The notes under the pieces were generated by a model, which did not search any database, was not told the origin of the DNA, and was given only the letters and a program-made list of their open reading frames with translations. Made by a program: the position numbers and the translations under genes. A stretch of DNA of 49,831 nucleotides, counting the filler, from Perkinsus olseni (Eukaryota): assembly GCA_013115125.1 (NCBI GenBank). It is 2 parts of 2 records of this genome, joined end to end, with 100 filler letters (N's around TTAATTAATTAA, not from the genome) between each part and the next. Parts side by side here need not be neighbours in the genome. Positions count along the whole stretch, not along the records: positions 25,024 to 49,831 come from JABANN010000504.1; 1 more part is not named here. The stretch is one strand, 5' to 3'. Positions 29,774 to 38,678 of this stretch are shown here, one piece after another; position 1 is the stretch's first letter, and every line of letters starts with the position of its first letter.

Positions 29774-32700
29774 ATGACAAATGGTGAAACGAGTACCCCT
29801 ATGAAGTCAACGATGAGTGGCGACTTGAAGGCTCTCCTGAGCAACTCCTTGGCAAGCATCAGTGTTGATGCCGCTGACGTGGACTCTCCAGCACGCTCGA
29901 TGACGCCCTTCAATGTGAATGCCGCTGAATTTATACCGCAGTCGGCTAGGAAGGCAGATGGGAGAGTGAGTCTTCGGATGGTCCTTTCTACTGGTCGAAT
30001 ATTCTCTTCTAGGATGATGCCGGCAATACATCGCTGAATGCGAACGCTCCTGTGTTTGTGCCTGGCGGTGCCGTTGCTGCTGCTGCCGACCTCGCAGCTG
30101 GTGGTAACGGACGTAATGCAGTGCCTACAGACCCGAGTGAGACGGTTAAAGAAGAGATATGCCAGGTTCCACTGCCGCTGCCAGCGAGTCTTTTCTTTCA
30201 TCACCTTTATTGTAGATTATTCATTCCATGGGAATGACTGGCATACGCGTAACGCAGTTGCCGCATCAGTATCGGAGATGTACCGGCAAGTGGCTCATCC
30301 TATCGGACACCAAGTTCTCAACACTCTCTGACGTTGTCGATGATATTAAAGTTGGTTGCTTCTTCGCAATTATCGAGTCATCATGGCACGCTTTATAGGC
30401 TCGCATCGAGTTCATCGATACCCCAGGGAGGCCCTCTACTGATAGGCATCCCGCGTCAACCACTGCCTCTACTGCCAGTGACAAGAAACTAGTAGTAGAA
30501 CCCTCAGTCAACGCTCCAGGTAGCGTTACGGGTTATTCCTTCGGAATGCTAGGCAGAGTGTTTCATCAGGAGCAGCGGCCTGCCCTCCCCTAGTGATAGG
30601 GCATCATGCAGACCGCATAGTAATGGACAAGTATTTCGGCCACTACTCGGAGGAGCTAAATTTTTTTAGACAGCTCGTCGTCGCGGTTGTTAGGTAGTCG
30701 TACCGATTTACGCTGGTTGGTGGAGCATTATTTCTGTCAGGGATTTTTGCCTTCGAAATCAGTGCGCGAGTGGCAGTCAAGGGGATGTGAATATCAGCAG
30801 CTCAAGCCCGATCGACGCTCACTCTAACACTCGGAGAGCCCCTCCTCACCAGCGACCAGCTGGACTAGCGCTTTCCCTGTTCGCCGCTGAATGGGATAGG
30901 TTAGGCTATGGTTTTGTGACGGCGTTGGTAGGCGGTTTTTGAGGTACTTTCACGGAGCACACGGGCTTAAGGAGATGCGCGAACGGTTTGGGGTTATGAA
31001 GCTGATGCCCTTCCTCCATTCTATAAAGGAATTGGACATTGTTGGGACGCATCCTGAGGTAGTACTTGTCTCAAGAGTCCTCGTCCTTATCGCAAGTCTG
31101 GTGCAGGTCCGAGTTCGGATGAAGCCAGAGTATCTCTACTCGTGCCCTTCAGCTGCTAGTACTTCTCCAACCACTCCGAAGTCTCTTGCTGCTCGCGCTG
31201 CCAGTCATGCCCCCCCGGGCTTCGATCCGAGTGAGATGCTTTTGCCCAACAATTTAGCGTATCTTGTAATCTCAGGAGCTCCTGTGGTGAGTGATGGGCA
31301 CTTCCACGCTGGGAATCCTCGGCCGGCACCCCCTCCTCAAACGAACGTAAAAGTGTGGCCCCTTGAGGTCTCGCCTCACCGTCTGTGTTAGAGTCATCGC
31401 CAAGATTATTCTACCCAAGCGACAGCCACGGCCCTTCTTGCACAGCAGCTGCTGCAATCTCAACAGCAGCTCATGGCGGTGATAAGTCACCAGCAGCAGC
31501 AACTAGCGATGATGGGAGCACCGACTTCGGTAGTACGATATTGAAGTACGCGGTAGAGGTGGCCAGGGTTCTTTCGTAGGGCCAGGCGACGGAGTTGGAG
31601 TCCCTCCTGTCGAGCTTGTTGGCCGGTATGGATAACGCGCATGCTGGAGCTGCCAATGGCAGTGCCATCAGCGCGACCAACGATTCTGAGGTGAGGCCTG
31701 GGGCGCGTTGTGGGCGATTTTGCTCAGTTCGTTCTCATTGAGAGCCCTCTACACTTCTACGGGAATTTCAATGAAATCTTGGTCTCTCTTGAGGAACTGA
31801 ACCTCCACTGTAAGCAAAGATTCTCCGAACTGAATTTTCTGGTAGGGTATACCAACGGCACCGGCCATTTGGTGCGTGGATATCTCTGTTGATCCAATCA
31901 CTTGCCAAGCTGATTGTTCAAGCTCGACTGGATTGAGCTCTTGTCGTTGTTGGCTCATATTTTGTGGCAGCTATGAGTGTGGGCTTAGGTACCTCAGCAA
32001 CCTTCGAGCACGTCACCGACACCTGTAGAGAGTCATGGCACATTAGTATCATCGGCTCTCATTTCTAAAGACGACCTGAAGCAGCTTCTCTTGAGCGTGA
32101 GTGCTGCCCTGAGGAATCCCTTGTGGTTTATCACGTGTACTGTTTAGGTTGTGGACGGAGTCTGTGGTGAACAGGCAAGGGCTTGGGACGCTCGAGAGGA
32201 TTTCCTTTCGGTTCTCACTGCTGCTGCTGGAGATGAGTCTGACTCTAGCGACAGCAGTTCGTACAGCGATGGAGGCAACTCTGATTTGAGGTAGTGTGAT
32301 TGTCACAGGAGAAGACTGCCGAATGACCGTGTCCTGCGGTGCTCAGCTTCCGACGTACTGAGATGGATGCTAAGTTGGCTTCCCTTGGAGGCAGTATACC
32401 GGAGTCGTTGATTACAGCAGAGAGGGAGATGCAGGCCCAGTCGAAGAGGTCCGTCTCTACCCACTACTACAGGCATCGTAGTGTACTGCTCAGGAACAAG
32501 ACAGTGGGCATGCCGGTATCGTCTGTGAAGCGAGCGTGGAAGAGGGCTTATCCCAGCCTCAATCCTCTCGATTTTTATATGACCTACTTTGGCATCCGCA
32601 AGCTCAAGTTCCTACTGCTGGAGATACCGCAGTTGCTGCTTATTGGTAGCTTTCAGTGCTGCCGCGGTCTAGGAGTATCGATGGTTGATTTCAGGCAGCG

Positions 32701-35933: not shown

Positions 35934-38678
35934 ATGACGGTTTCAACTGATAGTTCATCGCTGAGCAGGGCTGAGGAAGGCGCCTCGAAATTGAATGCCG
36001 AGGCCGCCGAGTTCGTTCCTGGGTCCACTGCCGTCGCCACTAAGCGCATCCCTGGCACCGAGACTATTAAAGCGGAGATACTGAATGTAAGAGGCCACCT
36101 GATTAGGGCTGCCCGATCGAGGGTGTTGGTGTAGGTTATACGGGCCACTGGGATGACCGGTATTAGAGTCACACAGATCCCTCATCAGTACCGTCGTCGT
36201 ACAGGGAGGTGGCTGATCATAGAGGGCACTCAGTTCGCCTCCTTGTCGTCTATCATTGACGCTATCATGGTAGTCCCTCAAATCCACTGCCCTTCACCGG
36301 CAGTCTCCCGCTCTCAGCCGTCGATTGAGTTTTATGACTCCCCCAAGGCCCCTACCCCTGGAATGGAGAAGGCTACTACGTATGACCCTGATAACGGTGT
36401 GGTGGTCATGGAGCCGACACCGGGCATCCAAGGTAGAGGCGAGGTACTCACGGGGCATGATGATTCGAGGTGGTCACAGGTGCGGATACATGCCCTCCCT
36501 TGGTTATCGGGGACTATGCTAATAAGGTGGTACGCGACAAGTCCTTCAGCCTCAACACCGAGGACCTATCGTTCTTCAGAGAATTGGTCGTCGCCGTAGT
36601 CAGGTAGGTCGAAGAATGAGGTCGCTTGAGCGTTTCCATCTGCTTGGTTTCTCAGAGACTTCTGCGACCGTAGTAGCCATCTAACTCCTTCGGGTCTTCT
36701 GACCCCTTCGCCTGGCTTGGCCCTCTCCTTGTTTTCTGCCGAATGGGATAGGTAGACCTCAGTCTGCGGCCTGGCCGTTCACCTGCTCGTTGTGGTCTCA
36801 GGTACTTCCGAGGGGCGCTCAGCTTGAAAGGGATGCGCGCCAAGTTCGGTGTAATGAAGCTACTGCCTTTCATACTCTCCTGCAAGGAGCTGGAGATGCT
36901 GGGAACTCATCCCGAGGTGAGAGGACCAGGCTATAATCGTGCGTGAATTAGTCCGTAGGTCCGCATAAGAGTGAAGGCCGAGTACACGATACCAGCTCAA
37001 ATCGTTCAACAGACCAGTAAGGCTGGCTAGTGGTGTCGGTGTATGCCCGCACTTGGTCTCCTCAGAGATGTCTTATATGGCGGCCGCGCCTCTGACTGGA
37101 CCTCCAATGGGGCCTCCGATTGACGGCAAGGGTAGTCTCGGTGAGAGCCTGTCCAACGTAGGGCCTCATCGCTTCATTCGAACCTTCACGAGATGCTCCC
37201 TTGCAGTACCTGTTGGCAGCACCCATGCTCGCTGGGGGAGTGTCATCGTCATCTGCTGCTGCTAACCCCTTGGGGCTTCCCTTACCGGTAGTGAATCCTC
37301 GCGCGGCACTCGTGTATACCCCCCGGTGTCCAGGCGCCCGTTGGTCCCGGTGACGGTCTCCTGCCTGCTCCCGCTCCTAGCGCTCTGTTGTCGAGTGCTT
37401 TCAAGGTAGTGCAACGGGGAAACCAATGCTGTCCACTTCCGAGGGTCAGGTCCCATCGGCATTGGCGGACCTCTCCCTGGCCCCTATGGAGGGCGCGCCG
37501 GGCTTCGAGGTCCCATTGGATGGCTCATCGGATGCCTCCGCTTCGAGCTGTAATTCGCCCGTTGAGCAGCCTCAGAAGGTGCAGCCCTACGACCCGATTC
37601 TGAGTGCTGCTGTTGTGAAGGGAGCGCCACTGCCGTTGTCTAAGGAGGACCTTAAGGGGCTTCTCTCTAGCGTGAGTACAGGAGTTAGGATAGGTGTGGT
37701 AGGCGGGAGTGGTTGGCAGGCTATCCGCGGCCACTGTGCAGAGCAAGCCCGCGGATGGGAGAATAACGAAGATTATATGGCGGCGTTGGAGAAGAGCTTG
37801 GCAGGGAGCAGCGACGGGTCCACCGATGGCGACACTAGCTCGTCGTCCAGTGAGGACGAGGATTATGATGATGATAATACAAGGTAGAATAGTGCCTGTG
37901 GTGGGGCGCCAAGGAGGGACTGTTGCACAGTTACCGCAAGGCCAGGCTTGGTGTTCTGATGGCTGGCCTTGGATCGAAGGTCCCCGAGGCATGGATTACC
38001 CCTAAACTTCTGGCTAGGGTGCAGACTAAGCGGTAGGCTACATAGCTGATGCCGTTCAAAGCCGCATGGGGGTGTGCGCTGTCAGAAACAAGACCGTCGG
38101 AGTGAGGGTGTCGTCGGTTCGCAAGCTGTGGAAGAAGGCTTATCCGGCACTGGGGGCGTTGGACTACTACTTGGACGTCATGCAAGTGAAGAAGTTGAGG
38201 ATATTCCTGGCTGGCATGCATGAGATGACACTCTTGGGTGGGCACTGCGGCCTAGTGCTCCGCTGCTATTGTAGTCGTAGTGCTTAGGGCGTGGCAGCCG
38301 TATGAGGGTGGCCCCCACGGCCCATATCGCACAGTACTGCCCACGACTGCTGCCGCCACACAGCTCGCCGCCGACCTCTGCTTCCTCCCCTGTGCCGCCA
38401 ATCACCGCTCAACTGTCCGCTACCCAGGTAGCCCCGTAGGCTACTCGAGGTCATTGAGGTTATCGGGCGAATGGTTGTAGGTTGGCGTGCTAGGGTCCGG
38501 CTTCCCCGAGGAGCAAGCGACCTCCACTCCGGTGGGGGAAGGGGAGGAAGAGATAGAGAAGCTCATCAAGGACCTCCTGCTCACGACCGACGCTATGACC
38601 CGTGCCGAGCTCGAGATGGAGATGGTCAGTCAACGGCGCGTATTGGTCCCAGCGGAAATGATTGCCCCCTGTTTTTAA
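35934..38678 (+). CDS. PAM2-motif plus two LOTUS/OST-HTH domain protein, paralogue 2 (multi-exon)
   Basis: PAM2 KLNAEAAEFVPG (35988-36023); FFRELVVAVVR, GLALSLFSAEWDRYF...FGVMKLLPFILSCKEL..GTHPEVRIR and RNKTVGVRVSSVRKLWKKAYP...VKKLRIFL, collinear with paralogue 1. The 3' end is uncertain. Confidence 0.7.

Follow-up and report, generated by a model that had tools for sequence, protein, structure and literature searches.

Two adjacent genes in a 49,831-nucleotide (nt) stretch of DNA from Perkinsus olseni, a parasite of shellfish, hereafter the window, encode proteins in which N-terminal PAM2 motifs precede a series of LOTUS (OST-HTH) repeats. These genes, A and B, are real tandem paralogues, and we put at roughly 0.65 the probability that their products act as cytoplasmic, non-enzymatic messenger ribonucleoprotein (mRNP) scaffolds, tethered to poly(A)-binding protein (PABP), for translational control or storage. 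An initial annotation of the locus had proposed mRNP scaffolds within a germ-granule-like module; the architecture it described is upheld, and the scaffold function is supported here as a probable reading. Single members of the family already carry the label "HTH OST-type domain-containing protein"; what is new is a PAM2-LOTUS family, undescribed in the papers we searched. The architecture is well supported, and it is conserved across Myzozoa, a wider range than was thought at first.

The tandem pair and its PAM2 motifs

The window, assigned to P. olseni in agreement with protein searches, joins two contigs (C2795 and C2796) at a run of N (24924–25023), and both genes lie on the second of these; all features given below are on the + strand. 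The coding sequence of gene A (29774–34899; 23 exons, 1105 amino acids, aa) corresponds to FOL46_007270 (our protein P0001), with 100% identity over 1092 aa, P0001 beginning 13 residues later. That of gene B (35934–38763; 17 exons, 681 aa) corresponds to FOL46_007271 (P0006), to which our exon model is identical, and a putative intron occupies 35875–35925 in its 5' untranslated region. The two spliced models share 37% identity over 636 columns (BLASTP, E-value (E) 3e-110) and 10 of their introns coincide in codon and phase, which bears out the adjacent, diverged paralogues first annotated. The extent originally given, 29774–38678, is right for the start of A; B ends at 38763, and A runs to 34899 across introns of 298 nt and 540 nt. 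The same tandem pair is present in P. chesapeaki, from consecutive locus tags on one contig (B orthologue, P0007). A P. marinus copy of B is absent from the protein search results, which is weak evidence.

RNA evidence comes from contigs assembled from 4 of the 24 listed runs, belonging to four studies; one of the four is on record as RNA, and spliced contigs show RNA in the other three. The 15 displayed joints (of 30) of gene A are all GT..AG, in all four runs, and single contigs of 3974–4012 nt span the gene in three of these. For the contig from run X2, the 23-exon model recovers each of the seven listed pieces as well as the total length of 3974 nt, and this match fixes the eight undisplayed joints. 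The 298-nt and 540-nt introns are both crossed; for the latter (33697–34236), pieces 33527–33694 and 34235–34581 adjoin in contigs. Gene A is found as fully spliced mRNA in four of four runs, with both PAM2 exons joined to all LOTUS exons, as the initial annotation had supposed. Because this holds across four studies, a broadly used gene fits better than one confined to a hidden sexual stage.

The 5' leader of gene A (29593–29771) consists of a non-coding exon to 29715 and a 56-nt intron (29716–29771); the joint 29715/29772 is found in all four runs, and the leader contains no upstream ATG. A trans-splice acceptor AG (29591–29592) is seen in one contig, from run X1, whose loose 5' end matches the spliced leader of Perkinsus, as printed in PMC9399869, at that leader's 3' end. 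Low cover upstream of this site is possibly the discarded leader region. The 3' untranslated region extends over 34900–35476, with contig ends at 35449, 35461, and 35476. Inside the 298-nt intron, a 114-nt stop-free, in-frame stretch between AG and GT (31728–31841) could be a cassette exon, although none of the four runs includes it; X1 contigs break just downstream.

A PAM2-type pattern occurs three times in the six frames of the window (at 29909, 30034, and 35991), compared with a mean of 0.2 (maximum 3) in 100 shuffles. Motif 1 of A (29909–29938) scores 16.7 bits with Pfam PF07145 on its exon, under the cut-off of 20, and is kept in P. marinus and P. chesapeaki. Motif 2 (30034–30063) passes with 22.7 bits, and protein A as a whole scores 28.3. 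The single motif of B (35991–36020) reaches 23.2 bits on the exon alone and 18.7, under the cut-off, on the whole protein. The N-terminal PAM2 motifs originally reported for both proteins are, on these scores, retained. In the predicted model of A, its motifs sit in a disordered region, with a predicted local distance difference test score (pLDDT) of ~50 or lower around them.

PAM2 binds the MLLE domain (PMC5760745), and the P. olseni genome encodes a PABP with RRM and MLLE domains (E 2.6e-26). A predicted PAM2-MLLE complex scores 0.37, against 0.02 for the best control, with runs agreeing on at least 84% of contacts and a partner pLDDT of at least 51. Of 78 solved pairs, 51 reach the mark used for such predictions, as do 2 of 108 mismatched ones; at 0.60 or less, it is reached by just 5 of the 78 solved pairs, but by all 4 passing mismatches. 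The prediction lends weak support to docking; being a textbook pair, this one may pass by likeness. A PAM2 in a disordered region, tandem PAM2 motifs, and a genomic MLLE partner are features in common with PAM2 proteins such as PAIP1/2, ataxin-2, and LARP4, from which A and B differ in that their RNA-facing part is LOTUS.

LOTUS repeats of the two proteins

AlphaFold2, run with a 40-sequence alignment, models protein A as four folded units (pLDDT ~90), with about half of the chain outside them, in keeping with the long disordered linkers initially described. For all four units, solved LOTUS domains rank first among the structural matches of the predicted structures. Repeat 1 (30127–30634; aa 103–222) has ~50 residues inserted in its wing and best matches TDRD7 (Z 8.7, root-mean-square deviation (rmsd) 2.4, 76 aligned). 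Repeat 2 (30647–31136; aa 227–343) follows directly, has a ~30-residue loop past helix 1, and best matches Oskar (Z 8.8, rmsd 2.2, 67 aligned). Repeat 3 (32058–32744; aa 505–666) is split by a ~70-residue acidic insert and ends in a conserved short helix; TDRD5 (Z 8.8, rmsd 3.2, 78 aligned), TDRD7, and Tejas (both Z 8.5) are its top 3 among 48,161 chains, and the top four rows are all LOTUS. Repeat 4 (32808–33476; aa 688–845), split by a ~65-residue insert, best matches TDRD5 (Z 9.1, rmsd 2.5, 78 aligned). The matches of repeat 3 were obtained with a first AlphaFold model, which failed for repeats 1 and 2, while those of repeats 1, 2, and 4 come from re-examination of Foldseek's 415 candidates with the second model.

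Only repeat 1 of A passes the Pfam OST-HTH (PF12872) cut-off (28.8 bits vs 23.8), and repeats 2–4 and protein B fall under it, probably because each repeat has a 30–70-residue insert. A search of PDB sequences with the family profile returns eight hits, all of them LOTUS domains, but at E 0.1–1.1; a 5-sequence profile returns one irrelevant low-complexity hit only. In the ESM Atlas, repeat 2 of A matches, with a feature score of 0.90, a cluster in which 24% of the members are OST-HTH, and a second such search (score 0.86) serves as a lead only. A G-h-x-p-h motif is described for OST-HTH (PMC2848206). Read from the alignment, repeat 2 of both proteins and repeat 3 of A contain it, and repeat 4 of A comes near to it; its glycine is replaced in repeat 1 of both proteins and in repeat 3 of B.

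Outside the folded units, a glutamine-rich helical segment of A (31413–31630) lies within a long low-confidence linker, with helices at residues 393–425 and 434–448 (P0001 numbering; pLDDT ~50–73). The low-complexity tail (33477–34899; ~260 aa, poly-Q) is broken by the 540-nt intron and has a pLDDT below 50 almost throughout. Pfam scans of A and B reveal no catalytic domain; hits to Arf, DUF4567, Phage_186_Fil, TDP-43_C, and Peptidase_S7 were dismissed, being under cut-off.

Gene B encodes three LOTUS repeats, whose fold we infer from A, and one leftover helix of a fourth. Repeats 1 and 2 (36063–36985) are identical to those of A at 37/65 and 60/95 residues, respectively. Repeat 3 (37636–38340) is split as in A and is hit by sub-profiles L3a and L3b (the profiles include B itself). 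The last stretch (38544–38763) holds the C-terminus and the first helix of repeat 4, the rest of that repeat being gone. The collinear LOTUS domains proposed at the outset are borne out in the modelled fold of A's four repeats, and the correspondence is incomplete in B.

Transcripts and divergence of gene B

In run X1, gene B is represented by three partly spliced contigs, with five introns retained as unbroken pieces and two more implied by depth bins. A model with 7 of 17 introns retained fits 10 of 10 depth bins within 0.5, while a fully spliced model does not, and a fully spliced B transcript was not seen in the four runs. For example, the retained 47-nt intron at 36433–36479 lies in an X1 piece (36135–36599) that is unbroken and without differences; it shifts the frame to a stop at 36597–36599, giving a 205-aa product with PAM2 and a partial repeat 1. 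The matching introns of A are spliced where B retains them. Weak splice sites are unsupported as the cause of retention (P = 0.16; 7 vs 10 introns).

There is almost no cover of gene B in runs X2, X4, and X19, and a 224-nt X2 contig that lies within one predicted exon says little. Depth in X1 is 13–41, compared with ~830 for A, and 23 of the 24 listed runs hold 0.34–0.37 of words, against 0.352 expected from A alone. We rejected an expression ranking of B against A, as genes cannot be ranked by contig depth or by absence of cover, and only 4 of the 24 runs were compared.

A tree was built from the core of repeat 3 (32 rows, 75 columns), excluding near-duplicates, weak hits, and fragments shorter than 300 aa. 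It places B on a long branch (0.66) among Perkinsus A sequences, with a group support of 86/89, under the starred level. Between B and its P. chesapeaki orthologue, domains are far better kept than linkers (91/97 residues identical in repeat 2 vs 52/123). The best explanation is that the copy with slow evolution and broad expression is A, and that B is a shortened duplicate, evolving faster but still under selection. That B is a decaying, functionless copy appears highly improbable: it has lost repeat 4 and the tail, sits on its long branch, and yields intron-retaining RNA with an early stop, but its 681-codon frame is intact and identical to the annotated protein, its tandem partner is kept in P. 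chesapeaki, and its domains outconserve its linkers.

Of the two genes, B alone leaves scope for use in a particular stage, and it may be stage-gated. Specifically, A could be the everyday copy and B one that is silenced by intron retention and fully spliced in one stage, e.g. the dormant spore or zoospore, a proposal that we make tentatively. Retention of seven introns whose A counterparts are spliced is consistent with such a switch, as is the finding that the splice sites concerned are not clearly weaker. Conservation in P. chesapeaki far beyond the early stop further implies that a full-length B protein is made at some time. The switch is, however, drawn from assembled contigs of one run with no stage label and no control gene, and A's long intron and upstream flank have similarly low cover in X1, so the B contigs may be ordinary unfinished or read-through RNA. 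Gating of this kind, itself a minority prospect, would be compatible with a PABP-tethered scaffold.

A family across Myzozoa and its proposed role

A search of 1.84 billion sequences with a profile built from five Perkinsus proteins yields 64 representatives with an E of 0.001 or less. Among the 29 of these 64 that were looked up, named members belong to Chromera, Colpodella, Selenidium, Toxoplasma, Neospora, Besnoitia, Hepatocystis, and four Plasmodium species. Dinoflagellate, ciliate, piroplasm, and Cryptosporidium names do not occur among those 29, which is not evidence of absence, and a search with protein P0011 for dinoflagellate members returned P0011 alone. Judged by these matches, the family is old and spans Myzozoa, from Perkinsus to malaria parasites and including gregarines, Chromera, Colpodella, and Toxoplasma. 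The unnamed orthologues P. berghei VUC56573.1, Toxoplasma TGME49_264170, Chromera Cvel_28471, and P. marinus PMAR003381 all belong to it, and their database entries carry no label beyond "unknown function" or "HTH OST-type domain-containing protein".

P. berghei, P. gonderi, and Hepatocystis show matches to all four repeats in the same order, some of them weak (E 0.02 or better, 70-sequence set). When Perkinsus and Plasmodium profiles are compared, the match scores 97.6% (E 4e-12) and covers PAM2 and repeats 1 and 2; in 4 of 5 haemosporidian sequences, PAM2 immediately precedes repeat 1. Overall, 36 of 51 family members have a PAM2-type pattern in their first 450 residues, against 0.1 in shuffles (these members are kin, not independent). 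Repeat number and inserts vary, with some members keeping only repeats 1–2 or 3–4. Protein P0057, a PAM2-only hit that was left out of the family counts, has 631 aa, in which eight PAM2-type motifs precede a match to RNase_T exonuclease.

A third P. olseni paralogue, C (FOZ61_005887, P0009, 925 aa), is encoded on another contig (G000:C497:28998–33463; L004–L009). It combines four repeats with two PAM2 motifs, and an eIF4E-type motif in relaxed form lies 43 residues before its end. Within their last 60 residues, 11 of 51 members have the canonical motif, YxxxxL-phi, compared with 1.05 in shuffles (maximum 5), usually with a proline-pair element after it; most of these 11 proteins lack a name and they are related, so they amount to one conserved feature, not 11 independent cases. 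P0011, a member with repeats 3–4 only, has an eIF4E-type motif at its N-terminus, not its C-terminus.

Full-text literature searches, which cover few subscription papers, return no published pairing of PAM2 with "LOTUS domain" or "OST-HTH". No papers were found for four orthologue locus tags (three of those given above and the GT1 tag), and screen or proteome tables may hold these orthologues under other tags. Among the best 25 of 225 papers on LOTUS, Toxoplasma, and Perkinsus, only the one on Md1 uses the term LOTUS domain. The 2010 OST-HTH catalogue has two other Perkinsus proteins, not PMAR003381; its P. marinus OHA-group members are other genes (PMAR023053), and its supplement does not mention PAM2 (PMC2848206). 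Similarly, a term search of a review of dinoflagellate RNA-binding proteins finds neither LOTUS nor OST-HTH nor PAM2 (PMC12787238).

As scaffolds, the proteins would work as follows. The N-terminal PAM2 would dock on the MLLE domain of cytoplasmic PABP and so bring the protein to polyadenylated mRNA. LOTUS domains, three or four per protein and with a fold taken from models, would bind structured or G-rich RNA and/or partner proteins and in this way choose targets; G-rich RNA binding is described as an ancient LOTUS property across phyla (PMC7498356). Long disordered linkers and inserts would supply multivalency, and the net effect would most likely be that selected mRNAs are kept repressed or stored. 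In one branch of the family, the terminal eIF4E-binding-type motif suggests contact with both mRNA ends; A and B are without it, and the third paralogue has the relaxed form.

Several points weigh against a scaffold of this kind. Other winged-helix folds reach Z 6.1–7.3, so the LOTUS margin in these models (Z 8–9) is real but modest, and Foldseek alone gives nothing at E 0.001 or better with either model. A PAM2 pattern is missing from 15 of 51 members, several of them fragment-like. Canonical YxxxxL-phi is absent from A and B and, at the terminus, from the named apicomplexan members, and this motif is common by chance, occurring in ~15% of yeast proteins (PMC7139794). One structural study reports no RNA binding detected for the LOTUS domains that it tested (PMC5458760). 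The effect could in principle be repression, storage, decay, or activation, and any binding, localisation, or phenotype named here is predicted.

The PAM2 proteins Tob and PAN3 act in deadenylation, and the pair could instead be mRNA-decay adaptors, with PAM2 anchored on the tail and the LOTUS repeats recruiting a deadenylase complex, like Drosophila MARF1. Six LOTUS domains in tandem are reported for that protein, together with binding to CCR4-NOT (PMC6168497), and a tandem LOTUS array is what A and B have in common with MARF1/Limkain b1. They differ from it in their added PAM2 and in that Pfam scans show no NYN or other nuclease, no RRM, and no known CCR4-NOT-binding feature; in addition, the LOTUS of MARF1 (Z 5.4–6.9) ranks under those of TDRD5/7 and Oskar. 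We regard this alternative to the scaffold as unlikely.

Less likely still is a germ-granule-like scaffold of a (cryptic) sexual stage that recruits a DEAD-box helicase in the manner of Oskar, TDRD5/7, or Md1, as was first suggested for this locus. LOTUS domains with disorder in a paralogous pair resemble C. elegans MIP-1/MIP-2 (EGGD) as described in PMC8331183, a comparison by description, not sequence; these differ in acting on Vasa-type helicases in the animal germ line, while A and B have PAM2. TDRD5/TDRD7 (Tejas/Tapas) and Oskar provide the best structural matches of A's four repeats (Z 8.5–9.1) and also have several LOTUS domains per chain and disordered linkers. By contrast, A and B are without a Tudor (in Pfam scans) or OSK domain and have an N-terminal PAM2, each A repeat has its insert, and a Vasa-type extension is unproven in A.

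Only extended LOTUS domains bind Vasa, and non-animal ones are said to be without the extension (PMC5458760). In A, hardly any residues separate repeat 1 from its successor; after the wing, repeat 2 has a helix of 4 residues and repeat 4 has none. Repeat 3 has a conserved 7-residue helix (26 family members compared) at the site of the Vasa-binding eLOTUS extension, a point in favor of the germ-granule reading. Since the Oskar extension is disordered when unbound (PMC5458760), a model of A without an extension helix decides nothing. Piwi-domain genes are present at two genome loci, but Pfam scans of the pair find no Tudor, NYN, or other germline partner domain, and gene A is mature mRNA in every run compared. 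The germ granule and cryptic sexual stage do not follow from this locus, and a sexual link of the family is unsupported.

Md1 is likewise an alveolate LOTUS protein, and it is reported in cytoplasmic RNP foci, a point in favor of granules (PMC9750867). It differs in having one LOTUS plus an OHA domain, is reported only from Haemosporida and piroplasms, and determines sex through its N-terminus, not its LOTUS domain (PMC9750867, PMC7616090). Scans for OHA (PF14418) are negative, at E up to 1 for P0001 and at E up to 0.05 for P0006, and two OHA loci lie elsewhere in the genome; we rejected Md1 orthology, and the link to Md1 drawn in the initial annotation does not follow. By sequence, the Plasmodium counterpart is another protein, the unnamed VUC56573.1 of P. 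berghei.

Apart from Md1, work on LOTUS proteins has been confined almost wholly to animal germ lines. The fusion of PAM2 and LOTUS common to Perkinsus, Chromera, and Plasmodium offers a concrete LOTUS handle on the translation machinery outside animals and, with the unannotated P. berghei and Toxoplasma proteins identified, an ancient LOTUS role in mRNA storage or sex is directly testable there. Hidden LOTUS arrays may be common in protists, because inserts probably let three of A's four domains escape Pfam. Extending the scaffold further, we speculate that the family is a Myzozoa-wide regulator in which PAM2-PABP grips the poly(A) end, four split LOTUS domains the mRNA body, and, in one branch, the eIF4E-binding motif the cap. 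It would stand in for a closed-loop bridge and form a second malaria LOTUS system beside Md1. In Perkinsus, A would be the everyday copy, B the one gated by intron retention, and C the cap-side one; if so, and the odds are against it, a lineage that leans on post-transcriptional control would use the three together for life-stage changes.

Three other LOTUS-like loci of the P. olseni genome are found at C1:111029, C3002:12724, and C58:37834 (L001–L003); the Pfam search of the genome missed A because of its introns, so counts in the genome are lower bounds. The first locus apparently combines RRM and LOTUS, and on C3002 a weak eIF4E-family match (9676–9768) lies ~3 kb from the LOTUS match. Downstream of the pair in the window, a gene at 39252–40104 shows likeness to REG-2-like HAD hydrolases (TIGR02252, E 5.6e-9, one exon; far under the whole-protein cut-off), and its first motif apparently has Glu in place of the usual catalytic Asp.

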